Shown: positions 13,497 through 51,595 of the stretch, piece after piece
How the letters are laid out: each line of letters begins with the position of its first letter
Position numbering within the stretch: the stretch's first letter is position 1
Assembly (NCBI GenBank): GCA_905213265.1
Contig: CAJMHR010000003.1
Coordinates: 5,411-69,410 of the forward strand
DNA: 64,000 nt
Direction: 5' to 3'
Origin: an uncultured Collinsella sp.
GTDB lineage: Bacteria; Actinomycetota; Coriobacteriia; Coriobacteriales; Coriobacteriaceae
Position numbers and translations under genes: made by a program
Notes under the pieces: generated by a model
The model's input: the letters and a program-made list of their open reading frames with translations, nothing else
What the model was told of the DNA's origin: nothing
Databases searched by the model: none

Positions 13497-13610
13497 CCGG
13501 GATCCGCACCCTGTCGGGTTCGAATCCCGGCACATGGGTATCAAAAAGCCCGCCACCGCGAGGGTAACGGGCTTCTCGTTTCAAATGGTGCCCCCAGCGG
13601 GATGTCCGCG
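13497..13610 (+). repeat. Copy 1 of a ~110-bp repeat. It contains a tRNA T-arm-like fragment (GTCGGGTTCGAATCCCGGC), a hairpin, and the prophage attL core.
   Basis: CCGCACCCTGTCGGGTTCGAATCCCGGC...AAAAAGCCCGCCACCG...GGTAACGGGCT...TGGTGCCCC. Copy 2 is at 13682-13795 with ~75% identity. Confidence 0.6.
13581..13603. repeat. attL: the 23-bp direct repeat TCAAATGGTGCCCCCAGCGGGAT, identical to the 3' end of tRNA-Glu at 51551-51573.
   Basis: Exact 23-bp identity at both prophage ends. The repeat includes the reverse complement of the tRNA acceptor 3' strand plus CCA. Confidence 0.75.
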
Positions 13611-13681
13611 TGCGGCTGGCGCCGCCCGCATTCGCTGCGTCGCTTCGCTCCTTGCGTGCTGCGCTGGAAAACGCTTGTGCG

Positions 13682-13795
13682 TTTCCTCAGCTCCGCACCC
13701 TGTCGGGTTCGAATCCCGGCGTTGGGGAAGAAAAAAGCCCGCTACCGAATTGGTAACGGGCTGCTCAGATTCTGTGGTGCCCCGTTTGCAAGAAT
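13682..13795 (+). repeat. Copy 2 of the tRNA-fragment/att-like repeat, diverged, inside the prophage next to attL.
   Basis: CCGCACCCTGTCGGGTTCGAATCCCGGCG...AAAAAAGCCCGCTACCG...GGTAACGGGCT...TGGTGCCCC aligns with copy 1. Confidence 0.5.
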
Positions 13796-13854
13796 ACTCG
13801 AACGATGATGACCGTCGTGAACGGGGCGGTCTACCTCATGATGCCGAGAGCGGC

Positions 13855-14763
13855 CTAAAGAAGCTGGTTAACGCGCGCCTGAACTGCGTCATACAAAGAA
13901 CCGAGGCGACGCTTGCGCTCCTCGCCGTTGCCGTAGTCGCCGCGAATGACCGCTCTGGCGAGCGCATCGATGTCGGCACCTCCGGTCGCGCTGCCGTCAG
14001 CGCCAAGAATCTCGTTGACGCGTGCCTGTACGGCGTTGTAGTTGGAGCCGAGCGCGGCCTTGCGGGCGTCTCCGTTGCCGTACTTTCCCGCGATCACGTC
14101 ACGGGCCATCTGGTCGATGTCAACCGAGGGCGAGGAGGACGAGCCGCCGATGATGCGGTTGACCTCAGCCTGAACCTCATCGTAGCGGCTGCCCAGCGCG
14201 GCCTTGCGGGCGTCTCCGTTGCCGAACTCGCCGGCGATTACGCGCTTGGCAAGCTCGGTGACGCTGCCGGACGGCGAGGAGCCGCTGGACGGAGCCGAAG
14301 CCGAGCTTCCGCCCGTGATGCGCGCCTTCAGGGCGGCCCACTTACCTGCGTCGACGTAGGGAGCGGGGCAGCGCTTGCCGGTCACGTCATAGTGGCGGAT
14401 CACGCGGGTGATGCCGTAGGTCGCCCGAAGATACTCGTAGATCTGCGCGAGCGCGTTAATCTGGGCGTCGGTGAAATCCTCGCCAGCGCTCACCACCTCG
14501 ACGGAGACGGTGCGCTGGTTCTGCGGGAAGTTGCCGACGGCCCACGCCGTGTCCTCGAAGCGCACGGACTGGCGGATGGTGCCGTCCTTGTCCACGAACA
14601 AGTGGGCGGACGCGTTCGCGCCCGCGCGGGAGAAGTACACGAGGTTGTTGTGCGCGCTCGCGGAGGTAGCGGTGTAGTGCACCGCCATTCCGTCAATCGC
14701 GTTACCACCGCGCCCCTTGGTGTAGTTTGAGGCGTGGCACTGGATGAACTCAGCGATGTTCAT
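13855..14763 (-). CDS. Phage endolysin: N-acetylmuramoyl-L-alanine amidase (amidase_2/PGRP) with three C-terminal CW_7 cell-wall-binding repeats.
   Basis: RHYDVTGKRCP amidase motif. Three repeats of GxxGNGDARKAALGSxYxxVQAxVN. Confidence 0.8.
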   Translation of the reverse strand: MNIAEFIQCHASNYTKGRGGNAIDGMAVHYTATSASAHNNLVYFSRAGANASAHLFVDKDGTIRQSVRFEDTAWAVGNFPQNQRTVSVEVVSAGEDFTDAQINALAQIYEYLRATYGITRVIRHYDVTGKRCPAPYVDAGKWAALKARITGGSSASAPSSGSSPSGSVTELAKRVIAGEFGNGDARKAALGSRYDEVQAEVNRIIGGSSSSPSVDIDQMARDVIAGKYGNGDARKAALGSNYNAVQARVNEILGADGSATGGADIDALARAVIRGDYGNGEERKRRLGSLYDAVQARVNQLL

Positions 14764-14868
14764 TGTTAGACCTCCTCAGGGTCGAAATCGTCGGGAGCGC
14801 CCTCGGCGCCCTCCTCGATGGCATCAAGCTGCTCGTCGGTCGGCTTGCCTTCCATTTCCGTCTCCCTT

Positions 14869-15471
14869 CTAAACAGAACGTCCGATTGAGATGAAGTAGT
14901 CCCATGCAACGGCGTTGAACTCGTCGCAGGTAAGCGAAACGGGTTTCGCCTCGCACGGGTCGTGGATGGTTATGCGGTCATGAAGGTTCTCCGTTATGAG
15001 CACGACGTGGCCTCCGTACTCGCGCCCTCCCTCGTGGAGCGCGCCCTCCATGGTTCCGAACACCAGACGCCCGGCGGCGGACTCCTCAAGCGCCCGCGAT
15101 CTGTCCTCGTAGAGAACCGTGTAGTCGAGCTTCGGGTCTTGCTGCGCCATCCACTCGCAGAAGCCGGGCATGTAGTTCTGCCCGTCCTGAACGTAGTCGT
15201 TGCCCACGAGGTTGAGCAGCATGGGCGGCGTGCACGTCTCGCCAGAAAGCCTCTCCCAAGCCATGGCCGCGCACGTGAGACCGCAGCCGGACGTGGCGAG
15301 GTCTGCGCCGGCGTAGGGCAGCCCGCCCCACCGCTCGTCCGTCTGCATGTAGAGCGGGACTTGCGGCTCGGCGGGTGTGTCGTACACGACGGGGAGCTGC
15401 TCCGGCTCCTCCTCGACGGGCTGCGGCTGAGTCCATACCACGAGCGCGCCGAAGAGGAACAGGGCCACGAG
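14869..15471 (-). CDS. Papain-like cysteine peptidase (C39-like) with an N-terminal signal-anchor. Likely a second lysis enzyme. The start is uncertain; a GTG near 15471 is proposed.
   Basis: Catalytic SGCGLTCAAM and GGHVVLI motifs. A hydrophobic VALFLFGALVVW segment lies right after the holin stop. The upstream ORF part overlaps the holin in another frame. Confidence 0.5.
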   Translation of the reverse strand, partial: LVALFLFGALVVWTQPQPVEEEPEQLPVVYDTPAEPQVPLYMQTDERWGGLPYAGADLATSGCGLTCAAMAWERLSGETCTPPMLLNLVGNDYVQDGQNYMPGFCEWMAQQDPKLDYTVLYEDRSRALEESAAGRLVFGTMEGALHEGGREYGGHVVLITENLHDRITIHDPCEAKPVSLTCDEFNAVAWDYFISIGRSV

Positions 15472-15479
15472 AAGGAGCG

Positions 15480-15713
15480 CTACTGCTGCTTGGAGAGCGG
15501 GCTTGTGCCCTCCTCCACCTCCGGCACGCCAACGATGCTCGTGAGCACCGACGCGACCGCAGCCGTGGCCGCGAGCGCCGCGATCTGCGGCCAGTCCAGC
15601 GCGGTAATGGAGACCACGGTCGTTCCCATGGCGGCGAGCGCCGTCTGGGCTGCGGTCTTGACGGCGCGGACGCCCGCCGCGACGAACCACTTCTTGATTC
15701 CGTCCTTGGTCAT
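15480..15713 (-). CDS. Holin
   Basis: 77-aa protein with two predicted TM helices and a charged C-terminus, immediately upstream of the peptidase/amidase. Confidence 0.55.
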   Translation of the reverse strand: MTKDGIKKWFVAAGVRAVKTAAQTALAAMGTTVVSITALDWPQIAALAATAAVASVLTSIVGVPEVEEGTSPLSKQQ

Positions 15714-15727
15714 GGTTGAACCCCTTT

Positions 15728-16258
15728 CTAACCTTCATCGCCCGCTCCCTTGCGTCGGACGACGATTGCGTGAACCTCGTCAATCTGCTTGGCCATGTGG
15801 GATGTCGTCTGGTCGATGCGCTGGGCAGTTGCCTCGGTGTGCTCCAAGCGCCCGCCCATCTCGTGGCTGCGCTCCTTGGAGTCACCGACCTGTGTGGACA
15901 GGACTTCGAGAATCCGCGTCTGTGTCTGCTGCCCTGTTGAAAGCGCCTCTATGACTCGCGTCTGCTCGTTTTGAGCGGCCACCTGCTGCTGGGTGGTCTT
16001 GATGCGCTCGCGCTCGCGTGAGTCGAGGGCCTTGTCCGCCGTCTCCTGCACCTCGATGCGGTAGCGCTCGATCTCAAGCTTCTTCTCCTCGATGGCGCGC
16101 TCGTTCTCAAGCTGCTTCTCCTTGAGGGCGCGGCGCTGGGGCATTCCCCACTTGACGACCACGAAGCAGATAGCCGCAACGGTGAAGGCGAGGAGGGCGG
16201 CAAGCGGCTCGGCTATGGCGGCGGCCTCGAACCCTCCCGCTAGGGCATCCCCGCTCAT
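15728..16258 (-). CDS. Hypothetical membrane-anchored coiled-coil protein
   Basis: The N-terminal TM is followed by a long Glu/Gln/Arg-rich coiled coil. No recognisable catalytic motif. Confidence 0.4.
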   Translation of the reverse strand: MSGDALAGGFEAAAIAEPLAALLAFTVAAICFVVVKWGMPQRRALKEKQLENERAIEEKKLEIERYRIEVQETADKALDSRERERIKTTQQQVAAQNEQTRVIEALSTGQQTQTRILEVLSTQVGDSKERSHEMGGRLEHTEATAQRIDQTTSHMAKQIDEVHAIVVRRKGAGDEG

Positions 16259-16473
16259 GCCTCCTCCGGCACATAAGCCGAGGGGGCCGTCTCAAGCTCG
16301 GCCTCGCAGGCGTTGATCTTGGCGCGAAGCTCCTCGCGCTGAGCCTTGACCGGCTCCCATTCCTCATCTGGCATAACGCCGTCAGCGTGCTTGAGGGCCT
16401 TGTAGTCGCTCTGCACGAGAAGCTGCTTGTAACCGTTGATCTCGGCCTCGATGGCCTCTCTGGTTCGCTCCAT
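16255..16473 (-). CDS. Hypothetical small phage protein
   Basis: 72-aa ORF, start-stop coupled (ATGA) with the downstream gene. Confidence 0.35.
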   Translation of the reverse strand: MERTREAIEAEINGYKQLLVQSDYKALKHADGVMPDEEWEPVKAQREELRAKINACEAELETAPSAYVPEEA

Positions 16474-16549
16474 GGCGCACTCCTTTCATAGGGTGCGCAC
16501 ATCGTATGGGCGGCGTGAGATTACGCGGCGGCCTTGAGCCTAGTCAGGG

Positions 16550-17698
16550 TCAGGATTTCCGCTCCGGGGGGGGGTATTCATTGCCGAACAGCTCCTTGTA
16601 GAGCCTGTCCATGCTGAGGACGGTTTCGTGCGCGTCGAGCCTGAGCATGCCGCCGCGCCAGCTCTGGTATGACTGGTTTATCTGTCTCAGCGTTATCTCG
16701 CCACGGTCTAGCATGCGGCGCATCGCCTTGAGCTTGCGGCGCTCGCGGGTTATGGCCTCGCGGCTCGGGCGCACGACGACCTTGCCCGTGGGGCCGTAGT
16801 AGAACCGCTTCTTGAGGAACCTGAAGCCGCGCGATAGCTTGACGATACGCGTCTTCTTCTTGTTGATTGTGATGCCGAGGTCATCGCACAGTATCTCGAT
16901 GCAGGCCAAGACCAGCTTGAGCTTGTCCTTGCTCATGTCGATGTAGTAGGAATCGTCCATGTAGCGGCCCGTCGCCTCAAGCCCCGCCATCTCCTCCGCC
17001 CAGTGGTCGATGGGGTTCGGGAGCGCAACCGCGAGTATCTGGTTCGGCTCGCTTCCGAGGCCGAGGCCCACGTCGCCGCATGCGTCTATGAGGCTGTTTG
17101 TCAGCGCCACGAGACGTTCGTCATCGAGGGCCTTCATCACGAGCCGCTTGGCCGCGTCGTGGTCGATGCGCGCGAAGTAGTCGCTGAAGTCCACGAGCAG
17201 CACGTAGCCATCGGTTCCGTGCCGCCGGTAGTGGCGCGCGAGCTGGTTCTTGAGCCGCGCTATAGCGTAGTCGACGCCCCTGCCCTTCATGTTGGCGGAG
17301 TTGCCGGCGGTGAGCGTCGGCATGATCGCGGGGACGAGCGCGTTCTGGCTCAGCGACTTGTGTACGACCCGCTCGCTGAAGTGCACGGACGATATGTGCC
17401 GCAGCTTGCCGCGCTCAATGAGGTCGAACTCGTGGAAGCCGCGCCGGATGTCCTCGCCGTTCAGCAGGTCTTGGCGTGCCTTGTAGACGTTGCCCAGAAC
17501 GTGGAGGCAGTAGCCCTGAACGGACGCCTTCCACGACACACCGCGCCTCGACTTCATGGCGGCGTCGTAGAGCGCGTCCATGTCGGCGATACGCTCAAGC
17601 GTGAGGCCGTCTATTCTCTCGGCCCTGTTGCGGGCGCGCTTTTCCTCGCGCCTAGCCCTGCGGGCAGCGCGCCTGTCGTCTGAGTTCATGGAGGGCAC
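16550..17698 (-). CDS. DGR reverse transcriptase
   Basis: RT motifs: RHISSVHFSERVVHKSL (motif 2), SLSQNAL...GNSANMKGRGVDYA, RYMDDSYYI (YMDD, motif 5), GFRFL (motif 7). Size of 382 aa and adjacency to TR/VR. Confidence 0.8.
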   Translation of the reverse strand: MPSMNSDDRRAARRARREEKRARNRAERIDGLTLERIADMDALYDAAMKSRRGVSWKASVQGYCLHVLGNVYKARQDLLNGEDIRRGFHEFDLIERGKLRHISSVHFSERVVHKSLSQNALVPAIMPTLTAGNSANMKGRGVDYAIARLKNQLARHYRRHGTDGYVLLVDFSDYFARIDHDAAKRLVMKALDDERLVALTNSLIDACGDVGLGLGSEPNQILAVALPNPIDHWAEEMAGLEATGRYMDDSYYIDMSKDKLKLVLACIEILCDDLGITINKKKTRIVKLSRGFRFLKKRFYYGPTGKVVVRPSREAITRERRKLKAMRRMLDRGEITLRQINQSYQSWRGGMLRLDAHETVLSMDRLYKELFGNEYPPPERKS

Positions 17699-17902
17699 CC
17701 CGCACGGCTAGCAGTGGCGCTCGAACAGCCGCTTTGCGGGGAGGCCATGAAACCGGGCTGAGCGCCGGAGCGCCCGGCCATGCAAGAAGCGTCCGGCTCC
17801 CCGCGCGGGGTGCATATTTACGGCGCTGAGGCCGATGGTCGCGCCTTCCTTCCTCTTTGCGCTCGGCTTTCGGCTCTCGCTTACTCGGTCTGGCATTGAA
17901 AG

Positions 17903-18031
17903 GGAATCCGGGGCGGGGCCGCACCCACGTGTTGCGAGGGGAGTTGTTGTTGGCGTTGCCGTTGTTGTTGCAATAGCAGACGTTGGACGCCGACCCACCC
18001 ACGACGGAGCGAAGCCACCAATTGACGCGAA
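17903..18031 (-). repeat. DGR template repeat (TR), ~129 bp, non-coding, between avd and the RT gene.
   Basis: It aligns to the VR with all 13 mismatches at TR-coding-strand adenines. If translated it would be AAC/Asn-rich (NVCYCNNNGNANNNSPRN). Confidence 0.85.
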
Positions 18032-18047
18032 TAACAAAGCGCAACCG

Positions 18048-18545
18048 CTACGCATTATAGCCGCCCGGCTGTTCGAGCACCACGGCCTCTAGGCGCTCGG
18101 CCTCGGCCCTCGCGGCGGCAAGCCTGTCCTCCGCCGACTCCCTGCCGATTATGCGCGTGTACTTGCGCTTTTTGGAGACCTTGTCCGCCTCGTCGCGGAT
18201 CATTCCGGAGATGCGCTCAAGCTCGCTCGCGGTGGTGCACTTCATGGCGATGAGGCACTGGAGGTCCTGCTCAAGCTGGTCGCAGTCGGCCAGAGCGAGG
18301 CCGAGGTAGCGCTTTCGCTCAAGGACGTTGTACGAGTTGCTCGGGTAGAAGCGGTTGGCCCTGTTGACGTTGTAGACGAGCGAGCGGGCGGTCTCCGCGA
18401 TCGGAGCGCCCAGTATGAGCCGCTTGCGCTTGGGGACTACGCTCTCGCGCATCACGAGGGAAAGAACCTCGATACGGATGTCCACGGCGAGGCTCAAGTA
18501 GTCGGAATCGGCCTCTTTCCTGTTTCGCTCGAATACTTGGCTCAT
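18048..18545 (-). CDS. avd: DGR accessory variability determinant (Avd-like)
   Basis: 165-aa basic helical protein starting MSQVFERNRKEAD with a GGAGG RBS. Its position between the target gene and the TR is canonical for bAvd. Confidence 0.55.
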   Translation of the reverse strand: MSQVFERNRKEADSDYLSLAVDIRIEVLSLVMRESVVPKRKRLILGAPIAETARSLVYNVNRANRFYPSNSYNVLERKRYLGLALADCDQLEQDLQCLIAMKCTTASELERISGMIRDEADKVSKKRKYTRIIGRESAEDRLAAARAEAERLEAVVLEQPGGYNA

Positions 18546-18649
18546 TTCGCCTCCAAAAATCGGCCCGCTTCGCGGGCATATAAAAACAAAAGCAAAGGGC
18601 GACCGCGCAAGGCGGTCGCCGTAAGTATAGCTATGGTTCAGCTGAAGTC

Positions 18650-19525
18650 TCAGCTGAGGAGGAAGCCGGGGCGGGGCCGCACCCACGTGTAGCGAGGGGA
18701 GTCGCTGGCGGCGCCGCCGTTGCCGTGGCAAGAGCAGACGTTGGACGCCGACCCACCCACGACGGAGCGAAGCCACCAATAGACGCGAACTTTCGCGCGG
18801 TCCTTGGTCTGGCGGAAGATGGGAAGCTGGCAGCTCTCGCCCACGGAGTAGCCCTTGGTTCCCCACACGGGGCAGCCGTAGACCTCCATCTCGTTGAGCG
18901 ACCAGACCTTGCCGAGGTTGGCCCAAGACCAGCCCGTGGACTCCTCGACGTTGCCGCTCGCGCTGTAGCGCTCCTCAAGCAGGCACCGGCGGTCGATGAT
19001 GCGGTTGCGGAGCGCCTGCGGGAGCTTCGGGAAAAGCCACTCGGTCTCCCACTTGTGCAGGTTGCTGTTGAGGTACGGGTGCTTCTCCTCCGCCGTGCCC
19101 TGATTGCTCTCGGTGTCTCCCCAGTATAGGTACTGCCCGTCCGTCGTCTGCCAGTCCGGGTCGGTGATTGCGATGGGATCGAACAGGCACACGAGGTGAT
19201 GCTGGGTGAGCTGCGTGTCCATGGCGTTGAGGTAGGTGTCCATGCCCGCGATGCGCGCCGTGAGGTTGTTGCTCTCGACGGGAACGGTGAAGTAGTCGCC
19301 GATGCGCAGGTTGCCGAAGCCAGAGTCGCACAGCCCGCCGAGGTACGCGTAGAGGTCGGACTGCCCGGAGAACAGCGAGTTGAGGTTGCGGCCCGCGTAG
19401 ATGCCGTTGAACTCCTTGCGGTTGGTCTCAGCGTCAGCCGACGCCTGCGTTGCGGCGTCTCGCGCTACTTGGTCGATGATCGTGTAGTTGGTGCCCTTCA
19501 CGTTCATTGTCTTTGCGTCTGCCAT
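18650..19525 (-). CDS. DGR target protein (putative receptor-binding tail protein) with a C-terminal CLec/FGE-like variable region.
   Basis: 291 aa from MADAKTMNV (GGAAGGA RBS). The C-terminal ...VYWWLRSVVGGSASNVCSCHGNGGAASDSPRYTWVRPRPGF is encoded by the VR. It sits after the tail-fibre gene. Confidence 0.7.
   Translation of the reverse strand: MADAKTMNVKGTNYTIIDQVARDAATQASADAETNRKEFNGIYAGRNLNSLFSGQSDLYAYLGGLCDSGFGNLRIGDYFTVPVESNNLTARIAGMDTYLNAMDTQLTQHHLVCLFDPIAITDPDWQTTDGQYLYWGDTESNQGTAEEKHPYLNSNLHKWETEWLFPKLPQALRNRIIDRRCLLEERYSASGNVEESTGWSWANLGKVWSLNEMEVYGCPVWGTKGYSVGESCQLPIFRQTKDRAKVRVYWWLRSVVGGSASNVCSCHGNGGAASDSPRYTWVRPRPGFLLS
18661..18789 (-). repeat. DGR variable repeat (VR), at the 3' end of the target gene. 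An IMH-like G/C-rich end (GGCCCCGCCCCGGC) and hairpins follow downstream.
   Basis: ~90% identical to the TR. Differences occur only where the TR has A on the coding strand. Downstream are CAGCTGA-AGTCT-CAGCTGA and GCGACCGC-GCAA-GGCGGTCGC hairpins. Confidence 0.85.
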
Positions 19526-19538
19526 TGCGGTTTCCTTC

Positions 19539-20432
19539 CTATGCGAGGGTGATGGTCGTGCCGCTTGCCGAGCACGTCTGTCCGAATGTGAGGGTGCTGC
19601 CCTCGACCGTGACCTTCGATGCCGGGCAGTAGATCGTGCCGTCCATGTAGAAGAAGTCGTCGGTTGCGTCGGCGAGCATCGAGCCAAGCGTGTCGATCTG
19701 CCCGCGCATCTCTGCAACGTCCTCGTCTCCGACCACGCTCGATTGCAGGTTGTCCGCGACGCTGCGGGCGTAGGCGGCTGCGGTGTTGGCGTTCGATGCC
19801 GCGCCGTTCGCGGAGTTGATGCCGTTCTGAAGCTGCGTCTTGAGGCTCTGGTACTCGCTGACGCGCTGCTCCTCGGCCTCTACGCGCGCGGTCTCCTGCT
19901 CGACGCGGGTGTTCTCTGCGTTCTGGCGGGCCGTCTCGTTGCTCTTGCGGGTGTTTTCCGCGCTCACGCGCGCGGCCTCCTGCTTCTCCGCCTGCTTCTC
20001 GTAGGCGTCCCACTTCTCGTAGAGCTTGGTGAGCATGTCGTCGTAGAACCCGGCGGCCTCCTCCGGGTCGGAGGTGTCCACCGCAGGGAGCACGCGAAGC
20101 TCGAAGCCCTCGGTAGACTCGGCCTTGGTCGAGCCGCTGTAGAGCACGAAGTGCGCGAGCCTCGCGAGGCCCGGCGAGGACACAGCCTGAGACGGCAGCG
20201 TGCAGCTGACCGTGCTGCCGGAGACTGACGCAGTGCAGCGCGCCCACGTGCCGTCGGCCTTGAGGATGTCGAGGCGCGCCGTCATGTTGCTCGGCGTGTA
20301 GGCCGCTCCGTCGTTCATCAGCTGCGCCTTGATGGTCTGCGTTGAGACGTCCCCCTCGCGCACCACGACGCGGGGCGGGACTAGCGCCGTGGTCTTGTTT
20401 ACCTCAAGGATTATGTTGTGGGTTACGGCCAT
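19539..20432 (-). CDS. Phage tail fibre / receptor-binding protein with a central coiled coil
   Basis: 297 aa. ENTR-type heptad repeats (AENTRKSNETARQNAENTRVEQETARVEAEEQRV). Located after Tal. Confidence 0.45.
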   Translation of the reverse strand: MAVTHNIILEVNKTTALVPPRVVVREGDVSTQTIKAQLMNDGAAYTPSNMTARLDILKADGTWARCTASVSGSTVSCTLPSQAVSSPGLARLAHFVLYSGSTKAESTEGFELRVLPAVDTSDPEEAAGFYDDMLTKLYEKWDAYEKQAEKQEAARVSAENTRKSNETARQNAENTRVEQETARVEAEEQRVSEYQSLKTQLQNGINSANGAASNANTAAAYARSVADNLQSSVVGDEDVAEMRGQIDTLGSMLADATDDFFYMDGTIYCPASKVTVEGSTLTFGQTCSASGTTITLA

Positions 20433-20435
20433 ACG

Positions 20436-40813: not shown

Positions 40814-40815
40814 GG

Positions 40816-41706: not shown

Positions 41707-41769
41707 GATAGAATCCTTTCGTCCGGCGGGGCCTAGCCGCCAAGCTCTCGGCCCCGCCCGCATTGTCAA

Positions 41770-42862: not shown

Positions 42863-42863
42863 T

Positions 42864-44573: not shown

Positions 44574-44576
44574 GAC

Positions 44577-44921
44577 CTAACGCTCCCAGTAGTAAGCGCC
44601 CTCAAGCGCGTTGACGGACACGGTTGCGCCGGTGCCGATAAGCGCCTCGATGACATCAAAGCGGAGCGCGTCCACCTCGGGGTGCTCAACGAGGAAGCAC
44701 ATGGCGATGTGCTGCAAGCGCTTGTAGCTGAACTCCGGTTCCTTGACCTCGCCGCGCTGGCGCTTCGCCGTCACGATCACGAGTACGGTCACCTCGCCGT
44801 CCTTCACAACGACGTCGGCGGTTCCCTCGTCGCACACGTACTTGCAAGCGCCATCGGCCTTGAGGCCCTTGGAGTTCAGGTGCGCGATGGCTGCGAGGTG
44901 CGCGATTGAATAGGTGTTCAT
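44577..44921 (-). CDS. Hypothetical protein, possibly a YraN/UPF0102-like restriction-endonuclease-fold nuclease
   Basis: 114 aa. GEVTVLVIVTAKRQRG resembles the E-x-K core of the UPF0102 fold. Weak. Confidence 0.3.
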   Translation of the reverse strand: MNTYSIAHLAAIAHLNSKGLKADGACKYVCDEGTADVVVKDGEVTVLVIVTAKRQRGEVKEPEFSYKRLQHIAMCFLVEHPEVDALRFDVIEALIGTGATVSVNALEGAYYWER

Positions 44922-44930
44922 GGTCTCCTC

Positions 44931-45317
44931 CTAGAACGGGCAGTCGTCGTCGTAGACGTCTGCGGGCTGATCCTCTGCGGCCTGCCCCGTGCGCTTGCCG
45001 CCTTGGAAGTCGATGTCCTCGCCGATGACCTCAAGCTTGCTGCGCTTCTGGCCCTCCTTGGTCTCCCACGTGTTCTGGCTCAGCCTTCCGGCAATGGTCA
45101 CGTGGGAACCCTTGGCGAGGTACTTGGCGATGCTCTCGGCGCGGTTGCCGAAGAAGATCACGTCGACCCAGTTGGCCTTGTCCGACCACTCGCCGTTGAC
45201 CTTCTGGCGCGTGTTCACGCACACCGCGAGGCTGCACACCTGCGTGCCCAACGCGGTTACGCGAAGCTCCGGGTCGCGCCCGAGGTTGCCGCTAATCGTC
45301 ACTCGATTGATGCTCAT
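44931..45317 (-). CDS. ssb: Single-stranded DNA-binding protein
   Basis: OB-fold N-terminus (VTISGNLGRDPELR). Acidic C-terminal tail ending DDDCPF. Confidence 0.8.
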   Translation of the reverse strand: MSINRVTISGNLGRDPELRVTALGTQVCSLAVCVNTRQKVNGEWSDKANWVDVIFFGNRAESIAKYLAKGSHVTIAGRLSQNTWETKEGQKRSKLEVIGEDIDFQGGKRTGQAAEDQPADVYDDDCPF

Positions 45318-45993
45318 CCGTCTCCTCCTTGCTGTGGTCTGAGTCCTTGGCGATCTGCGCGAGGTACTTGCCCCACTCGGTCACCTGCCCAAGGGTCAGG
45401 TCGCCGGGCTGCACGTCCCCGAAGCTGGCCTTGTACCAGCTGTCAAGACCGCTTTCCTTCACGCCCTGAGCCATGCACTGGGCCTTGAGCTGCAAGCAGC
45501 GCGTGAGCCACTTCTTCTTGTCGGGAGCGGCCTGAGCCTTGCCGGTTGTGTTCCCCAGCGGGTGGTTGCGCGGGTTTGCCGGAGGCGTTGTGCCGCCCGC
45601 TCCGGTGTCTCCGTCCGTGTCGTCATCGCCAGCGAGGCCGAAAGCCTTGAGCAGCGAATAGCGGCGGGCATATGTCTCGCGCTTGCCGAACTCCTGCGGG
45701 TCGCTGTCGTACTGGTATGGGGTCACATCGAGAACCTGCTTGGTTTCCCCGTACATGACCGCCGTGTGGAGCAACATGCCGTTCTCCACCACCTCTGAGT
45801 ACTGCGAGAGGAAAACGCCGTTCTCGTTGAGTGCGGGGCGAACCACATCGAGCACCGCGTCAAGCGTGGTGTAGTTGTAGGTGTACTCGCCGCCGGTGCG
45901 GGTGCGAACCTTCGCGGTCTTGTCCTTCTTGGGGTTCTGCATCATCTTCTGCGCGGCACACAGGGCCTCCGCGAGCGTCTTGGTCTCGGCCAT
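45292..45993 (-). CDS. ERF-family single-strand annealing recombinase
   Basis: GEYTYNYTTLDAVLDVVRPAL...TYARRYSLLKAFGLAGDDD parallels P22 Erf (GKYKYRSCEDILEGVKPLL...SYARKYCLNGLFGIDD). Confidence 0.6.
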   Translation of the reverse strand: MAETKTLAEALCAAQKMMQNPKKDKTAKVRTRTGGEYTYNYTTLDAVLDVVRPALNENGVFLSQYSEVVENGMLLHTAVMYGETKQVLDVTPYQYDSDPQEFGKRETYARRYSLLKAFGLAGDDDTDGDTGAGGTTPPANPRNHPLGNTTGKAQAAPDKKKWLTRCLQLKAQCMAQGVKESGLDSWYKASFGDVQPGDLTLGQVTEWGKYLAQIAKDSDHSKEETDEHQSSDD

Positions 45994-46898
45994 CACTGCA
46001 CCTCCGTGAGCTTCCTGTAGTGGTCGCAGAACTGGCAGGCGGAGCAGTAGTCCATGCACTTGGGGTCTTCGCCGGGGCGGTGAACCACGTAGAACTTGCC
46101 CTTGCCGTTGGCGCTCTCCTGCTCCATGCGGGCTTTCGCCTCATCCTCGCTGTCAAAGAGGCGGATGGCGGTCTTGCGGCCCTCCTTCATGACGGCCCAC
46201 TTGTCGGCGCGGTGCCAGCGCTCGCTCTCGGTGCACATGGGCAGCTGGTCGTCTGGAAGCTTCTCGGCTTCCTCGATCTCCTCGAAGCGCTTGGCGAGCC
46301 ACTCGCCGCACCGCTCTATCTGCTCGTCGGTGAAGTCCCACCCCACGCGCCAGACGGGGTGCTTCGGGTAGTCGGCCTTGTTCTTGGCGTCGCTCTTCTT
46401 GTGATCCTTGAGCAGCGCAACGATCTCGCCGCGATGGGCGTCGAAGCCTATCTGCCGAAGCATCCAGCAGTAGATGAGGGTCTGCTTGCGCCAGTCCCCA
46501 AGCTCCTCGTCATCCTTTGCGCCGAAGACGGCCTTCCAAGCCGATGCCGTCTTGTAGTCCGTGACGGTGCCCGTCGCATCGTCGTAGAGGTCGAATATGC
46601 CGCTCAGCTGGTAGCCGTTGGGCATGTCGATGACGAGGTGGTTCTCCTTGAGCTGGGTCTTGGTCTCCTTGGCGTTCTGGAGAATCTGGTGCACCGCCGA
46701 GCCGAAGACGGCCCACACCATGTCCGCCACGTCCTGAGTGATCTCGTCGTCGTGGCGGCGCTGAAGGATGGCCTCGCGTGTGCCCTTCAGAAGGGCGGTC
46801 ACGCTGTAGCGCTTGGGCGTGTACTTGTAGTCGCTCTCCGCAGCCGAGACGAACGGGCGCGGGAGGTTAAGGGAGTTGGTGAGGTTCACGCCTAGCAC
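45993..46898 (-). CDS. PD-(D/E)XK exonuclease (Cas4/RecB-like) with a C-terminal Cys cluster
   Basis: IFDLYDD...VTDYKT nuclease motifs. The C-terminal CMDYCSACQFC is a Fe-S-type cluster. Confidence 0.6.
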   Translation of the reverse strand: MLGVNLTNSLNLPRPFVSAAESDYKYTPKRYSVTALLKGTREAILQRRHDDEITQDVADMVWAVFGSAVHQILQNAKETKTQLKENHLVIDMPNGYQLSGIFDLYDDATGTVTDYKTASAWKAVFGAKDDEELGDWRKQTLIYCWMLRQIGFDAHRGEIVALLKDHKKSDAKNKADYPKHPVWRVGWDFTDEQIERCGEWLAKRFEEIEEAEKLPDDQLPMCTESERWHRADKWAVMKEGRKTAIRLFDSEDEAKARMEQESANGKGKFYVVHRPGEDPKCMDYCSACQFCDHYRKLTEVQ

Positions 46899-47209
46899 CC
46901 CCCGAACAGAATGCCAAAGATGGCCTTCAGCTCGTCGCGCCGTTCCTCGATCTTCTGCATGTCGCTGCGCACGTTAGCCAGCGCCTTCTCGACAACGTCC
47001 TCGGGGTACTTGGCGATGATCGCCTCGCAGATGGCGATGGTGTTGTACGCGGACTGGCACATGTCCACGTCTGCGCTGCGGGTCTCGTCCGCATCGTGGG
47101 TGAGCATGAACACGATGTTGCTCTCCACAACGCCTGCGGCCTTGTGCAGGTTGTCGTGAAGGTCGTGCAGGTCGACGCCGTTCATGATGTTGCGCTCAAA
47201 GTACTTCAT
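46892..47209 (-). CDS. Hypothetical phage protein
   Basis: 105-aa ORF. Confidence 0.35.
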   Translation of the reverse strand: MKYFERNIMNGVDLHDLHDNLHKAAGVVESNIVFMLTHDADETRSADVDMCQSAYNTIAICEAIIAKYPEDVVEKALANVRSDMQKIEERRDELKAIFGILFGGC

Positions 47210-47211
47210 GG

Positions 47212-47509
47212 TTAGTTGCTCCCTTCGGTGAGCATGTGGTCTTCGTCTTCAATGGGGTCGTAGATTTCGCCGGTCTCGGCGTCCACGTTGGCGGGGCGCT
47301 CATCGTCAAACGGCAGCGGCTCGGCCTCGTACTCGTTGCCGAAGTCAAGCTCCTGCTGCTCGCTCTCGATGGTCAGAACCACGGTGCGGCCCGCCTGCTT
47401 GATGACGTCGAAGGCACCAGCCGCTTCGGTAAGCACCTCGAGCTGAAGGACGGCGACGCCGCCCTTGACCGTGGCCTGCTTGAAATGGGCCTTGATGGTG
47501 GTGTTCATC
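47212..47509 (-). CDS. Hypothetical acidic phage protein
   Basis: 98 aa from MNTTIKAHF with an AGGAGG RBS. Confidence 0.35.
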
Positions 47510-47965
47510 TGGCCTCCTTCTCGTATTTCTCGCTGTAGTACTCGACGCGCACCCGGATAAGGCACTCGTCGCTGTAGGGGGTTCTGGGGTCGAAGGTCAC
47601 GCCGAGCTGCGTGATCTGGCAGTCATCGCGGTAGGCCAGCCCGTTCAGGCTGTCGCAGATGACCTTGGCCAAGTTGTCCGCATCCGGCTTCATGAGGTCG
47701 GGACGCCCCGCCCAGTACTTGGGGTTGCTCTTGGCCAAGGGGCGCTGAACCTCGATGAACACGCGCACCTCGGTGGCGAAGTCCTTCCAGCGGTCGCCCG
47801 CTGCGGCCTCCCACTGGCGCTTGATGGACTTCTCGGCGTGCCGGGTCTTGTCCGGCGTGTAGGTGCGGAAGCGCTTCGTGTCGAACTTCGGTCGCTGCTT
47901 GGTGGGAACCTCCGGAAAGCACATGACGCACTCGGCCACGCCGACGCGCTTGGTCTTCCAGCTCA
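47505..47965 (-). CDS. rusA: RusA-family Holliday junction resolvase
   Basis: KPDADNLAKVICDSLNGLAYRDDCQI is the canonical RusA catalytic Asp motif. Confidence 0.75.
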
Positions 47966-48288
47966 TCGGAGCACCGCCGTCGTGTAGCCGTCGGCGTCGC
48001 TGCGCGCGACCCTCATGCGGATGGTCTTGTCCTGCTCCATGGCGATGCGTGCGAGGTACGGCGCGAGGTGGTTGGGCAGCTCGATGCTGAACTTGATGCG
48101 CATGCCGTAGAGCGCGCGGTTGGGGCTTGCCTTGCCGTCGTGGGTGCGGGCGCACTCCGCGCGGGCGTTGTCCTTGTACCATCCGAACTCGACGGGATGG
48201 GCCTTCACCCAAGCCCTAGCGTCAGCCATCCGCTGCTCGCCCTTGGGGTCTAGCCCCGGAAGGGCCATCTGGTTGTCCGGGGTCTCCA
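47963..48288 (-). CDS. Hypothetical phage protein
   Basis: 108 aa from METPDNQ (GAGGAAG RBS). The longer ORF upstream overlaps the neighbour. Confidence 0.35.
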
Positions 48289-48294
48289 TCTTCC

Positions 48295-48576
48295 TCATGC
48301 GACCATCCCCTGTGCGGTCGCAACCGCAGCGTCCATGGTGGGGATGACCCAGAGCCACAGGATCAGCCCGCACACGAGCGCCGCGACGCCGATGCCCAGA
48401 AGAAGCCCGGCCTTGAACGCCCGCATCTGGTTTTCCCGCTCGATTTCGGCAGGTATGCGCATCGTATGAGCCGGCATGCGCGTCTGGCGTGTTACGCTGT
48501 TCGTGGCCTGTCGGCCGTTCCGGGCGCTCAAGTTGTGGTAGACGGGGGTGCCCGGATATTTCTTTTGCTTGGTCAC
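48295..48576 (-). CDS. Small membrane protein
   Basis: 93 aa with a C-terminal TM helix (AGLLLGIGVAALVCGLILWLWVI). Confidence 0.35.
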   Translation of the reverse strand: MTKQKKYPGTPVYHNLSARNGRQATNSVTRQTRMPAHTMRIPAEIERENQMRAFKAGLLLGIGVAALVCGLILWLWVIPTMDAAVATAQGMVA

Positions 48577-48618
48577 GTTCTCTCCTTTCCGATGTTTCCG
48601 CAGGTAACTGAACGGTTC

Positions 48619-48984
48619 TCATTTACTTCTCAGTTTCTTGAGCGTTTTCTTGTGCCTATGCTTGGCGCTGTATAGGCGCTGGCGCTCGCGGTTGACCCTC
48701 TCCTCCCGCCTCACCTCCTCTTCCAACTCGCGCACCTCTTCCGCGATCTCCTCGTTCCGCAGCTCCTTCGAGCAGGACGCGCACCACCCCGTCTTCGGGG
48801 AGAGAGGCTTCCTGACGCGCATGCCGCACTTCGGGCACTGCCAGACCTTGCGGAGGGAGATTCCGTATCGGCTGGCCTGAACCTCGACGGCGTGGGGCGA
48901 GCACCCTAGGGCCTCGGCTACTGCCTCCGCCCCCTCGTCTGCGTGGTCGCTGAGGTACTTGAGCTTTTTGGTGGTCCACTTCAC
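48619..48984 (-). CDS. Hypothetical HTH/zinc-ribbon protein
   Basis: CPKCGMRVRK...CASCSKEL Cys4 motif. Basic coiled-coil C-terminus. Confidence 0.4.
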   Translation of the reverse strand: MKWTTKKLKYLSDHADEGAEAVAEALGCSPHAVEVQASRYGISLRKVWQCPKCGMRVRKPLSPKTGWCASCSKELRNEEIAEEVRELEEEVRREERVNRERQRLYSAKHRHKKTLKKLRSK

Positions 48985-49079: not shown

Positions 49080-49295
49080 CTAGCAAGGCAGCTGAACGAC
49101 CGCGAGCTGATAGAACTCGTCAAGGGACATGCCGAGGGCGCGCGACAGGTTGAAAGCCTCTGAAAGGCTGAACTCATTCGAGCCGCGCATCTTGTTAAAC
49201 AACGAAGAACGGCTCATGCCGAGCTTGTCGGCAAAAGCTCCCATCGTCATCTGGTTGGCCTCGACATACTGGCCTACCTTCTCTTGCAGGGTCAT
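49080..49295 (-). CDS. Cro-like XRE-family HTH regulator
   Basis: 71 aa from MTLQEKVGQY (AGGAGAAG RBS). MGAFADKLGMSRSSLFNKMRG is an HTH. Confidence 0.65.
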   Translation of the reverse strand: MTLQEKVGQYVEANQMTMGAFADKLGMSRSSLFNKMRGSNEFSLSEAFNLSRALGMSLDEFYQLAVVQLPC

Positions 49296-49299
49296 GCTT

Positions 49300-49372
49300 C
49301 TCCTTTCTCTCGCGTACAAAACTTTGTACGCCCTTTAGTATTGTACAAAGTTTTGCACCGTGCAATACTTTG
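49300..49372. promoter_or_regulatory. Genetic-switch operator region with two to three palindromic GTACAAA-n2-TTTGTAC sites between the divergent cro-like and cI-like genes
   Basis: GTACAAAACTTTGTAC, GTACAAAGTTTTGCAC, CAATACTTTGTAC. Confidence 0.6.
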
Positions 49373-49408
49373 TACGTGTAAATAATTGGACTCTAGGAGA
49401 GGCGTGTA

Positions 49409-49633
49409 ATGGAGTACCGGGATGTGCTAGCGCACTACCTTGAGCAGAAGGGGATGACGCCCGCCGAGCTTGCGCACGCCATTGGCTCGCCACGGTCTAC
49501 GATCAACGCGCTTTTGAAGGGAAGGGCAAAGGAGCCAACGCTGGGAAAAGCGAAGGCTATAGCAGACGCCCTTGGTGTTTCTCTTGAGGAGATGGCGCAA
49601 ATGACATACGGCGGTGATGGCAAAGATGCTTGA
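49409..49633 (+). CDS. cI-like XRE-family HTH repressor
   Basis: 74 aa. MTPAELAHAIGSPRSTINALLKG is an HTH. Divergent from cro. Confidence 0.6.
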   Translation: MEYRDVLAHYLEQKGMTPAELAHAIGSPRSTINALLKGRAKEPTLGKAKAIADALGVSLEEMAQMTYGGDGKDA

Positions 49634-50072
49634 TGAAAAGTTCGCAGTTGAGTGGTGGTTTGAGGACAAAAGCCCTTGGGTCAATTGTGGTGATCGCCTG
49701 TTTGAAAGCAGCTGTACGAGGTCTGTTTACGATGATGAGAGCAGAAGCTTTAGTGATGTGGTTGCCCTCGGCCTTTTTACGCCAGATAACGAGCTGGTTG
49801 GATATGTCCCTAAAGAACTAGAGGCTTCAGCACGAGACGCAATGTCATCAGGCCTTGAAACGGTCGTTGTTGAGGAATACGACGGTGAGCTGAACTATGC
49901 CCCTGTTGTTCGCATGACAGACTCAGAAGCAAGAAGCGCCGAGCTAAAGCAAAGTGAAGACGCTTCAAAGAAAGGCACCAGAAGCGCTTATCTTTTTGCC
50001 GCGCTTGTCACCCTTGCCATATGCGCCGTTATCGGAGTTGTTCTTGGGAACCTGATAAGCGCCATAGGATAA
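49614..50072 (+). CDS. Hypothetical membrane-anchored protein between the repressor and the integrase
   Basis: 152 aa with a C-terminal TM (AYLFAALVTLAICAVIGVVLGNLI). Moron position. Confidence 0.4.
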   Translation: MMAKMLDEKFAVEWWFEDKSPWVNCGDRLFESSCTRSVYDDESRSFSDVVALGLFTPDNELVGYVPKELEASARDAMSSGLETVVVEEYDGELNYAPVVRMTDSEARSAELKQSEDASKKGTRSAYLFAALVTLAICAVIGVVLGNLISAIG

Positions 50073-50140
50073 AACGAAAGCCCCGGTGCGTCCGCCAAGA
50101 CACATCACCGGGGCTGCAAACAAAGGCCTCGAAAGGAGGC

Positions 50141-51595
50141 ATGAACATTATGTCACAGAAGACCGCCGTTCTCTACGCGCGGTTCTCGTGCTCCAAGCAG
50201 CGCGAGGCGTCCATCGAAGACCAGCTGAGGGTCTGCCGTGACTGGTGCTCCCGCGAGGGCTACGCCATCGTCGCCGAGTACTGCGACTATGCGATTTCAG
50301 GGCGCACGGACGACCGCCCGCAGTTCCAGAAGATGATCGCCAACGCGGGTGAGTCAGACATCGTCCTCGTCTACATGATGGACAGGTTCAGCCGCGATCC
50401 GTTCGACGCCCCCATATACAAGCGCGAGCTTCAGGCCCACGGGGTGAAGCTGGTTTCCGCCCTTGAGGCCATACCCGATTCCCCCGAGGGCATCATCTAC
50501 GAGAAGCTCCTTGAGGGCCTTGCCGCGTGCGAGTCCCGCAAGACCTCGATACGCTCGCGCCGTGGCATGGAGGGCAACGCGCTTCAGTGCAAGACCAACG
50601 GCGTGCGGTGCTTCGGGTACCGGACGGGCGATGACGGGCGCTATGAGATCGTGCCGGAGGAGGCGGAGATAGTCCGCGAGGTCTTCCGTCGCAGGACGCA
50701 CGGCGAGTCCGTCAACTCGATAGCGATGGACTTGCGGCAGCGCGGCGTCGTGTCGAGGGCGGGCAACCCCATAAAGGACACGTTCGTGAACAACATGCTC
50801 CACAACGACAAGTACCGGGGCATCTACTCGTGGGGTGGGATAACCCAGAAGGACGGCATGCCGAGGATAATCAGCGAGGAGGTCTTCATGAAGGCTCAGA
50901 GGGTGAAGGGCAAGAAGCAGCGCCAGAACGAGCAGTGGGGGGACTTCGCGCTTTCCGGGCGCGTGATCTGCTCGGCGTGCGGGCGCAACATGCGCGGGGT
51001 GTCGGGGCGCGGCTCCTCGAAGCGGAAGTACGAGTACTACGCCTGCGGCAGCTGCAAAGAGGTGAAGCCCGTCCGCCGCGACTGGCTTGAGGGGCAGATC
51101 GTGAAGGCGCTGAGGGAGCTGCTGTCGCAGCCGGAGGAGGCGCGCAGAATCGCCGAGATGTGCGTTGACGGCGGTGAGCCTAAGGAGATAGCCGAGGGGC
51201 GCAAACGGGCCGCAGCGGCGCTGAGAGCCGCCCAGACGGGCCTTTCCAACATCCTCAAGGCGGTGGAGCAGGGCATCGTGGTTCCCGGAACCAAGGAGAG
51301 GGCCGAGGAGCTTGAGGCGCAGAAGGATCGCGCCGAGCGCGAGCTGGCCATGTACGACCGCAAGCGGATAGACCCGGAGAACTTCGCGCGGTTCCTTCAG
51401 TTCGGGGCCACGCTCACCGACGAGCTTCTCCTTGACGCCTTCGTGTATCAGGTGATGGTGTCGGACGATGCCGTTGTGGTGACGATGAACTTCGACGCAG
51501 AAAGCAACGAACCCGCAAGACTTGAGGTCTCACGGGTTCGTACTTTTTTCAAATGGTGCCCCCAGCGGGATTCGAACCCGCGATATCCACCTTGA
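50141..51595 (+). CDS. Large serine recombinase (phage integrase)
   Basis: N-terminal resolvase catalytic domain (AVLYARFSCSKQ), recombinase domain, zinc-ribbon (CSACGRN...YYACGSC) and coiled coil. A GGAGG RBS precedes it. The C-terminus overlaps the tRNA 3' end. Confidence 0.8.
   Translation: MNIMSQKTAVLYARFSCSKQREASIEDQLRVCRDWCSREGYAIVAEYCDYAISGRTDDRPQFQKMIANAGESDIVLVYMMDRFSRDPFDAPIYKRELQAHGVKLVSALEAIPDSPEGIIYEKLLEGLAACESRKTSIRSRRGMEGNALQCKTNGVRCFGYRTGDDGRYEIVPEEAEIVREVFRRRTHGESVNSIAMDLRQRGVVSRAGNPIKDTFVNNMLHNDKYRGIYSWGGITQKDGMPRIISEEVFMKAQRVKGKKQRQNEQWGDFALSGRVICSACGRNMRGVSGRGSSKRKYEYYACGSCKEVKPVRRDWLEGQIVKALRELLSQPEEARRIAEMCVDGGEPKEIAEGRKRAAAALRAAQTGLSNILKAVEQGIVVPGTKERAEELEAQKDRAERELAMYDRKRIDPENFARFLQFGATLTDELLLDAFVYQVMVSDDAVVVTMNFDAESNEPARLEVSRVRTFFKWCPQRDSNPRYPP
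51551..51573. repeat. attR: a 23-bp direct repeat identical to attL
   Basis: TCAAATGGTGCCCCCAGCGGGAT. Confidence 0.75.

Follow-up and report, generated by a model that had tools for sequence, protein, structure and literature searches.

Two questions are raised by the 64,000-nt stretch of uncultured Collinsella DNA considered here (contig CAJMHR010000003.1, positions 5,411 to 69,410; hereafter the window, in whose own numbering all positions are given): where exactly does the prophage inserted beside its tRNA-Glu(UUC) gene begin and end, and which enzyme put it there? An earlier note on the same DNA had described a strain-variable prophage of ~38 kb, bounded by 23-bp direct repeats that were taken as the left and right attachment sites (attL and attR), and carrying a serine integrase gene. 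Positions 13784-51553, together with one copy of a 9-bp core, very probably constitute the genome of a siphovirus-type temperate phage of Collinsella, 37,779 bp in length, and the comparison of related loci makes it highly likely that this genome was placed at the extreme 3′ end of the tRNA gene by its own large serine recombinase (LSR), through ends that are not the 23-bp repeats.

The chromosomal neighbours are a gene for a type III glutamine synthetase (GSIII, 10988-13138) on the left and a fused murT/gatD gene (51729-53906) on the right, and the sole tRNA found by ARAGORN is tRNA-Glu(ttc), at 51554-51630 of the minus strand. The host is Collinsella, a gut bacterium, and the loci of relatives used for comparison are numbered L002, L003 and so on.

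Empty sites and the junctions of the prophage

An exact lookup of the GSIII protein gave ten same-species contigs from metagenomes and genomes. In L003-L005, where the GSIII protein is identical, the order is GSIII, 624 bp and murT/gatD, and the DNA between these genes is colinear with 13139-13603 followed directly by 51572-51728 of the window, so that the insertion is real and varies among strains. The search of related genomes for an empty bacterial attachment site (attB), which the earlier note had proposed as a check, was thus run and did find prophage-free tRNA-Glu sites, and the prophage of ~38 kb that it placed at tRNA-Glu(UUC) stands.

The junctions lie at 13783|13784 and 51553|51554. 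The sequence that they share, TGGTGCCCC, is a 9-bp core complementary to the tRNA 3′ end GGGGCACCA. A serine integrase needs a match of just 2 bp at the crossover, and a core of this length suits such an enzyme. The elements concerned are the following:

13775-13783, plus strand: attL core TGGTGCCCC, 9 bp in common with attR; the neighbouring bases differ (g/a on the left, G/C on the right), and phage-form contigs match the window from 13775 or 13784 on
51554-51562, plus strand: attR core TGGTGCCCC, complement of the tRNA 3′ end GGGGCACCA, from sequence comparison
51554-51630, minus strand: intact tRNA-Glu(UUC) by ARAGORN, forming the B′ arm of attB, with the same sequence in lysogens and non-lysogens

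The phage attachment site (attP) is seen directly in contigs of related phages. A scan of IMG/VR with TTCAAATGGTGCCCCGTTTGCAAG, the junction of an alternative model of the ends, returned contig 3300045988_150580 (38,571 bp), whose 55-nt terminal overlap is the signature of a circular assembly. This overlap reads, in order, the 3′ end of the integrase gene (int), TTTTTTCAAA-TGGTGCCCC-GTTTGCAAGAATACTCGAACG and the endolysin gene, equivalent to window 51508-51562 followed directly by 13784 and beyond. A single alignment block of 94% identity (12.7 kb) relates the contig to window 13775-26499, and the leftover 55 nt align to 51508-51562. The same attP junction stands in the middle of an 18-kb Logan contig (L066), where a 495-aa int converges on the endolysin gene with a 4-nt overlap. 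Positions 13604-13783 are missing from all three attP-form contigs.

Other phages use this tRNA as well. For a second phage type, whose integrase (Int) is 63% identical, attP was found in four contigs (L019, L021, L025, L027) as TTTTCGGGT-TGGTGCCCC-ATTTGCAAAGATAGTCGAACCC, and attR at tRNA-Glu in L020, L022-L024 and L047-L054, with the same 9-bp core. Further prophages at this tRNA (that of L010 and those of L059-L062, four IMG/VR records that include host flank) all join at the host repeat unit proximal to the tRNA, with an 88-bp host segment upstream. For the window copy, the predicted attP junction is TTTTTTCAAATGGTGCCCCGTTTGCAAG and the predicted restored attB is GATTCTGTGGTGCCCCCAGCGGGATTCG. 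As a side observation, two IMG/VR records of the phage, 159933 (L013/L064) and 141915 (L015/L063), begin and end inside the att core, one running from GCCCCGTTTGC... to ...TGGTGC and the other from ATGGTGCCCCGTTTGC... to ...ATGGTGCCCCCA.

The 23-bp repeat and the host array

What, then, is the 23-bp repeat? The 23-mer TCAAATGGTGCCCCCAGCGGGAT has exactly two copies in the window, at 13581-13603 and 51549-51571, no third match allowing up to 3 mismatches, and 0 expected copies in shuffled sequence. The earlier note had the left copy at its correct position and the right one, given as 51551-51573, 2 nt too far to the right. Of its further suggestion that the repeats sit at a synteny breakpoint, which was checked, the part concerning the right copy stood, and the left copy lies outside the breakpoint. 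The right copy consists of the last 18 nt of tRNA-Glu, encoded CCA included, and 5 nt downstream, and the left copy stands in host DNA that non-lysogens carry too, 180-200 bp from the true left junction on its outer side. The claim that these direct repeats are attL and attR therefore had to be abandoned, because 13604-13783 is host DNA in non-lysogens and the phage-form contigs join 51562 to 13784.

Among the aligned same-species loci, 13581-13783 occurs without a prophage in L006-L009, L011 and L002, and sequence of this type also lies upstream of the other prophages in L010 and L059-L062, which identifies the left 23-mer and the 180 bp to its right as host DNA. The 23-bp identity has two sources: 18 bases of the tRNA 3′ end, present in the live gene and in the relic alike, and five bases, TCAAA, by which the P arm of the phage matches by chance the usual host sequence downstream of the tRNA. 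The host DNA concerned, which has no assigned strand, is built as follows:

13496-13603: host repeat unit 1, non-phage, with a 36-bp palindrome (13496-13531), a terminator hairpin (~13543-13575) and the 23-bp pseudo-attB (13581-13603); present in the non-lysogens L006-L009, L011 and L002
13604-13691: 88-bp spacer of an array of 189-bp host units, confined to host flanks (one copy in two-unit strains, two in L002) and contained in none of the attP-form phage contigs
13692-13774: host repeat unit 2 (half palindrome and terminator), the B arm of the attB that was used, 78% identical to unit 1 (repeat D2), with the same layout before the tRNA in two-unit non-lysogens

A complete 189-bp unit comprises the 36-bp palindrome, the terminator hairpin, the 23-bp fragment of the tRNA-Glu 3′ end and the 88-bp spacer, and the number of units downstream of tRNA-Glu varies from 1 to 3 among Collinsella strains. 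The prophage-free loci L006-L009 and L011 carry an extra 189-bp unit, followed by a second half-palindrome, a terminator and a core running into the tRNA, and L002, also without prophage, has three units. The window shares the two-unit layout of the non-lysogens, except that its unit 2 ends as ...GATTCTGTGGTGCCCC|GTTTGCAAG at 13783|13784. Every unit of the array, which was there before the prophage, closes with a decayed piece of the tRNA-Glu 3′ end devoid of the motif TCGAAC. Unit 1 folds into two strong hairpins (z = -4.5). The identity of its relic 23-mer to the tRNA ends exactly before the T-loop motif TCGAAC, and the loss of this motif may, judging by the sequence, account for the fact that no prophage uses the relic. 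In certain strains the relic cores are decaying (TGGTGCTCCC, TGGTGTCCCC), and the whole array may be the remnant of an older integrative element with a core reaching from the T-loop to the 3′ end.

Two candidates within this region were rejected. The 88-bp segment 13604-13691 was considered as the end of some phage, and BLAST of all fetched loci together with the IMG/VR scan gave host flanks only. The 36-bp palindrome 13496-13531 was considered as the real LSR attB, and there is no junction there, every junction being at TGGTGC. The palindrome itself reads GCCGGGATCCGCACCC-TGTC-GGGTTCGAATCCCGGC, with arms that resemble the T-arm of a tRNA, and a search of 13100-13900 against Rfam gave sub-threshold matches only and none for the palindrome. 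Its arms vary in a compensatory manner among strains (window; L002, L007, L059), as in GCCGCGGT...ACCGCGGC, GTCGGGAT...ATCCCGAC and GCCGTGAT...ATCACGGC, a pattern of sequence change that suggests a hairpin or a symmetric binding site under selection. Two other insertions were seen around the tRNA. In L002 (12200-12960), a Y1 transposase of the IS200/IS605 type is inserted directly after the GSIII terminator, beside the repeat array, and L008, L009 and L011 hold an additional insert of ~200 bp between tRNA-Glu and murT/gatD, with repeated TGTAACA / TGTTACAGAT motifs, which is absent from the window.

Anatomy of the attachment sites

The three phage types at this tRNA narrow the place of strand exchange. 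In the third type (L010, L059-L062) attL is TGGTGC|ACCGTTTGC, that is, it reads TGGTGC|ACC, and the tail of the phage-form Int opens with WCT (TGG TGC ACC); the A at position 7 being a phage base, strand exchange must fall to the left of position 7, and the shared core of this type is 6 bp long. The P arm of the second type differs from the host immediately to the left of TGG, so the exchange lies to the right of position 0. If the three orthologue types share one register, we infer from these sequences a 2-bp crossover within TGGTGC, the complement of GCACCA, the last six bases of the tRNA. The two arms of attP, now separated by the prophage, are:

51507-51553, plus strand: P arm of attP, inside the int 3′ end and recognised by the spacing of GGGTTCG(T/C)AC, including a hairpin with a 15-bp stem that is now 3′ of the tRNA (terminator-like site on the minus strand, 51541-51507)
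13784-13858, plus strand: P′ arm of attP, the orphaned 3′ end of the phage-form int (24 codons, VCKNTRTMMTVVNGAVYLMMPRAA, and stop), with TCGAAC at +18 to +23; contiguous with int in the attP contigs L012 and L066, its tail being conserved in 48 homologues

The T-loop motif TCGAAC occupies +18 to +23 after TGGTGC in all three P′ arms, and +13 to +18 in the B′ arms of four tRNAs (Glu, Arg-CCG, Arg-CCU and Asn). Its distance from the centre is thus 5 bp greater in attP than in attB, which is the shift seen for the LI/A118 integrase, whose zinc-ribbon-domain motif is displaced 5 bp inward in attB as compared with attP (Rutherford et al. 2013, PMC3783163). With the centre at G5/C6, the half-site positions are 19-24 in attP and 14-19 in attB, as against 16-24 and 11-19 in that study. 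The P arm bears a mirrored GTTCG at the matching distance, and GGGTTCG(T/C)AC stands at a constant distance from TGG in all members of the family. The dyad axis of attP falls at about G5/C6 (best at C6, with 13/24 positions matching); an attempt to fix the crossover dinucleotide by this symmetry made no choice, the axis being on G5/C6 and GC being palindromic.

Integration would be a conservative exchange between attP and attB, by a 2-bp crossover within TGGTGC. The phage has identical bases at the crossover, so that the tRNA is left intact. In the lysogen the terminator that belonged to the tRNA stands at attL, and the tRNA gene is followed by the hairpin of the phage P arm.

The integrase and its replaceable tail

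Which enzyme is responsible? The only recognisable integrase of the element is encoded next to attR:

50141-51595, plus strand: large serine integrase in its prophage form, with the likely start at ATG 50141 or 50150, Resolvase, Recombinase and Zn_ribbon_recom domains, and the last 10 codons (QRDSNPRYPP) from the tRNA antisense strand

These three Pfam domains uphold the earlier identification of a large serine recombinase. The full open reading frame (ORF) spans 50021-51595 (plus strand), and its final 42 nt are shared with the tRNA in antisense, so the overlap of the integrase C-terminus with the tRNA was also described correctly. The catalytic domain matches PF00239 (E = 3e-28), with the motif Y-A-R-F-S (Y9 A10 R11 F12 S13) invariant in 48 homologues; PF07508 (E = 1.1e-14) and PF13408 (E = 3.2e-8) follow, and C274, C277 and C299 are invariant in the same 48. 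The relatives in the PDB are 9iu2 ('Integrase'), the A118 integrase (C-terminal domain 4kis), the TP901-1 integrase and the catalytic domain of gamma-delta resolvase. An AlphaFold2 model of the phage form P0001 predicts an N-terminal domain, a recombinase domain, a zinc-ribbon domain and a coiled coil of antiparallel helices (345-373 and 381-404), with a predicted local distance difference test (pLDDT) of ~84-92. By those defining features that can be tested in silico, the enzyme is a large serine integrase. The Pfam and PHROG scans of ~55 ORFs of the element gave no tyrosine recombinase (Phage_integrase, PF00589), and among cultured phages there is no close relative of Int, the best being 35% identical.

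The attachment site lies inside the 3′ end of int, which has a direct consequence for the protein. In the attP contigs int reads past the core for 24 codons (VCKNTRTMMTVVNGAVYLMMPRAA) to a stop at window 13856-13858, and the free phage encodes an Int of 495-498 aa with a 24-residue tail, whereas the Int of the prophage has 481-484 aa, the last 10 of them from the tRNA antisense strand. The phage form ends in ...WCPVCKNTRTMMTVVNGAVYLMMPRAA and the prophage form in ...WCPQRDSNPRYPP. The phage-form tail is kept in other types (ICKDSRTQVLALGRSVFIRFSRAA; TVCASPRTEVCAIGTIIFVRIPRAA), and also in a relative of 55% identity (...GSKVLVRVPLAA), though the DNA of the latter is here unrelated to that of the window phage. 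In an alignment of the tails of 48 phage-form homologues (53-99% identity), W469, R477 and A495 never vary, and R493 and A494 almost never, within the pattern R/Q-T ... V-(F/Y)-(L/I)-R-x-x-R-A-A-stop, which is kept down to 53% identity, including L055 with its unrelated DNA. This conservation extends 70-78 bp from the crossover, as against the attP sites of ~50 bp of serine integrases in the literature searched; it reaches beyond such a site, and therefore reflects the protein and not a DNA site. AlphaFold2 predicts short strands in the tail at pLDDT 54-71, with low confidence on their packing.

A family of integrases at tRNA genes

A protein search gave 829 homologues at E < 1e-40, in Collinsella, Atopobium and Olsenella, and the tails were read in the best 120 cluster representatives. 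Those relatives in genomes that are at least 62% identical and for which the downstream flank was recovered abut and read into a tRNA 3′ end, with the exception of L037. Their targets are tRNA-Glu(UUC) in several contexts, tRNA-Arg(CCG), tRNA-Arg(CCU) and, in Atopobium, tRNA-Asn(GUU). Down to 53% identity, and L037 apart, the neighbour of the relatives is the CCA end of a tRNA (Glu, Arg, Asn and others). Among the best 120 representatives, 55 have the phage-form tail, at least 40 have tRNA-antisense tails of more than 20 kinds that bear D/E-S-N, which is the T-loop read backwards, and 14 are cut at a contig end right after the Trp codon. This codon, TGG, is the complement of CCA. The first 2-3 residues after Trp co-vary between phage and prophage forms (WCP, WLP, WCA, WWA, WWT), as would be expected if the bases about the crossover had to agree with those of each tRNA. 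Cluster P0001, a phage-form cluster of 99% identity, has 95 member sequences, and therefore the excised form of near-identical phages is commonly sampled in metagenomes. In addition, L065 (4340-4500) has an Int 99% identical that sits at another tRNA-Glu(UUC) gene (75 nt, T-loop TTCGATT), beside a glycosyltransferase and GtrA genes, so that the same integrase accepts at least two tRNA-Glu variants.

These patterns would be joined by a tentative proposal, to which we give clearly less than even chances: a clade of large serine integrases may be specialised on tRNA genes, with the crossover in the complement of the universal CCA, a zinc-ribbon domain that would read the T-loop, universal as well, and a target that could move from one tRNA species to another by changes in just the bases in between, and the loss of the tail on integration, which gives the phage and prophage forms of Int, could bias directionality. 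Were this true, the tailed Int might, for example, be competent for integration, and the tail-less Int restricted to excision or dependent on a recombination directionality factor (RDF).

Gene content of the prophage

Is the element a complete phage? From ~13.8 to 51.6 kb almost all genes lie on the minus strand and make up a typical siphovirus set by Pfam and PHROG matches:

13855-14763, minus strand: endolysin (Amidase_2 and three CW_7 repeats, Pfam), convergent with int in L066 with the 4-nt overlap
16550-19717, minus strand: diversity-generating retroelement (RVT_1 and phrog_1423 matches), with reverse transcriptase 16550-17698, template repeat (TR) 17903-18031 and variable repeat (VR) 18661-18789 at the 3′ end of the target gene (DUF6273)
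19539-30358, minus strand: tail module (PHROG and Pfam), with tail fibre/Tal 20990-23599, Dit 23578-24294, tape measure 24291-28412, chaperone G/GT 29332 to ~28870 and tail tube 29342-30358
30351-37482, minus strand: head and packaging (PHROG), with connectors, major capsid 31968-33119, protease 33123-33860, portal 33841-35139, TerL 35182-36651, TerS 36638-37186 and HNH 37183-37482
37521-48984, minus strand: early and replication genes (PHROG and Pfam), with radical-SAM-like, ParB-like, HNH, primase 40816-41769, DnaC-like 43325-43975, SSB, Erf, exonuclease and RusA 47505-48212
49080-50072, both strands: lysogeny switch (Pfam HTH_3), with a Cro-like helix-turn-helix (HTH) protein 49080-49319 (minus), a CI-like HTH protein 49409-49633 (plus) and a 152-aa ORF 49614-50072 (plus), in the same order before int in L065 and L066

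The head, tail, lysis, replication and lysogeny functions are all present, and a candidate -1 slippery site, C CCT TTA at 29057-29051, emerged from frame analysis of the tail chaperone gene, in agreement with the description of the modules as intact but for one programmed frameshift. The genome of 37,779 bp compares with 38,571 bp (the 55-nt overlap included) for the circular relative, with which it is colinear over 12.7 kb. As far as gene content and this likeness tell, the element is a complete, intact-looking siphovirus prophage of a lineage active in the human gut.

The repeat of the retroelement is 129 nt long, the 13 positions at which TR and VR differ are all adenines in TR, and the target ORF terminates with VR; L010, L064 and L063 also have a reverse transcriptase and a repeat pair. 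Between the packaging and replication modules, a 414-aa ORF (37521-38765, minus strand) barely passes the Radical_SAM threshold (29.7 bits, with the cutoff at 29.5). In the host flank, MurT (Mur ligase middle domain and MurT_C) and GatD (GATase_3) form a single 725-aa ORF (51729-53906, minus strand), MurT and GatD being usually two separate proteins.

Alternative explanations

The 23-bp repeats might still be thought to mark a prophage from 13581 to 51571 that includes the 88-bp segment and unit 2, given that the repeat is exact, beyond chance, and that its extent, from the T-loop to the 3′ end with 5 nt more, resembles a classical tRNA att core. This is scarcely tenable, since 13604-13783 is found in prophage-free strains and is absent from three independent attP-form contigs, and the proximal unit is also where the other prophages of this tRNA are joined. 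It is also very improbable that the serine recombinase is a bystander, such as a resolvase or invertase, and that a different enzyme, or homologous recombination involving the tRNA-like repeats, integrated the phage. The host repeats could support homologous recombination, and tRNA sites are typical of tyrosine integrases (44.5% against 4.9% for serine integrases, PMC7192596); against this stand the lack of any tyrosine integrase among the scanned ORFs of the element, the core of only 9 bp, attP and attB layouts that follow LSR geometry, and the LSR ORF that crosses the junction in every flank-resolved relative but L037, at several different tRNAs. A third possibility, that the window copy is cryptic and non-inducible despite its intact look, we regard as unlikely: nothing specific favours it apart from an RDF not being identified and a prophage-form Int without the conserved tail, and the modules are all present with uninterrupted ORFs, the length equals that of a complete phage genome, 12.7 kb are colinear at 94% with a circularly assembled phage, and phage-form Int of 99% identity is common in metagenomes. 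The balance is even for the view that the tail swap is a neutral by-product of having attP within int, without regulatory meaning. The AlphaFold2 confidence of just 54-71 for the tail speaks for neutrality, as does excision, which evidently happens in nature although the prophage-form Int has no tail, and the conservation of tail length and pattern to 53% identity, even with unrelated DNA (L055), and to 70-78 bp from the crossover, past attP sites of ~50 bp, speaks against it.

Several points weigh against integration by the phage's own LSR through the 9-bp core, the explanation preferred here. The attP contigs belong to relatives that are 94-99% identical and not to the window copy, the case being one of sequence comparison, and a tandem lysogen could also yield attP in the middle of a contig, though with the same sequence. 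In L037, a contig of a Collinsella metagenome-assembled genome, an Int 100% identical (4400-4506) is followed after TGGTGC by non-tRNA sequence, GCCACACTGCGAACAGAAC..., its tail fits neither form and the contig ends 87 nt later; integration at a secondary site, recombination or an assembly error could explain it. No RDF was identified; RDFs are not known to form a single sequence family. GC, to which the symmetry axis points, is a palindromic dinucleotide and would not set orientation, and the B arm on the downstream side of the tRNA differs from strain to strain and has no clear mirror of TCGAAC. Finally, the prophage model leaves the origin of the 189-bp host array unexplained.

Comparison with known systems

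Characterised large serine integrases are known to target protein-coding genes (comK, groEL1, SCO3798 and others). The enzymes of A118/LI, Bxb1, phiC31 and TP901-1 share with the window Int the domain set, the short att core, the position of int beside attP and, for LI, the 5-bp shift of the outer motif; the window Int differs in targeting the CCA end of a tRNA and in having attP inside its own ORF, and the PDB similarity is low (E ~1e-8). An attP within the integrase coding sequence, so that integration alters the C-terminus of the prophage-encoded enzyme, is known from the intP/intX gene of the myxophage Mx8; that enzyme is a tyrosine recombinase and not an LSR, and in the window the replacement residues come from the tRNA antisense strand. 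The literature searched gave no case of an att site inside int that changes the C-terminus of a serine integrase.

As for tRNA genes as targets, the same literature gave only two precedents for serine recombinases. In the TIGER survey, t(m)RNA genes were used by 44.5% of the elements with tyrosine integrases and by 4.9% of those with serine integrases (14/297), a use that its authors had not seen reported before and that in their view needs experimental proof (Mageeney et al. 2020, PMC7192596). The window locus is very probably of the same kind as these computational cases, for which the paper gives a count, without site anatomy, clade pattern or change of the int C-terminus. The other precedent, as described in that paper, is phiRSM, a filamentous Ralstonia phage with a small serine recombinase ('S-core') at the 3′ end of tRNA-Ser (Askora et al. 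2011, via PMC7192596); it has in common a serine-family recombinase with the 3′ end of a tRNA gene as attB, and in that description its Int lacks the recombinase and zinc-ribbon domains, the window enzyme being a full LSR. The word 'tRNA' is absent from the LSR catalogue of Durrant et al. 2022. Tyrosine integrases have longer cores and a preference for RNA genes (2026 survey, PMC13626063), and prophages that they insert at tRNAs resemble this one in the target class, the intact tRNA and the position downstream of it; the window element differs in having no tyrosine recombinase, a 9-bp core, and a crossover at the CCA end and not in the anticodon or T loop. The system is an uncommon variant of known LSR integration, little described in the papers searched, in which an LSR clade with attP inside int would have the CCA ends of tRNAs as its speciality.

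Meaning of the locus

The locus provides sequence-resolved cases of an LSR at a tRNA gene, with attP, attB, attL and attR defined for three phage types at one tRNA. It also shows that the longest exact flanking repeat was not the att site, and that tRNA relics near an integration hotspot can shift boundary calls by ~200 bp. The replacement of the Int tail, built into an int ORF that runs across attP, is a possible built-in signal of the integrated state. The clade appears to read generic features of tRNAs, the CCA end and the T-loop, and to have moved among many of them, which makes it a natural series for the change of specificity in serine integrases, a property that matters for their uses in genome engineering.

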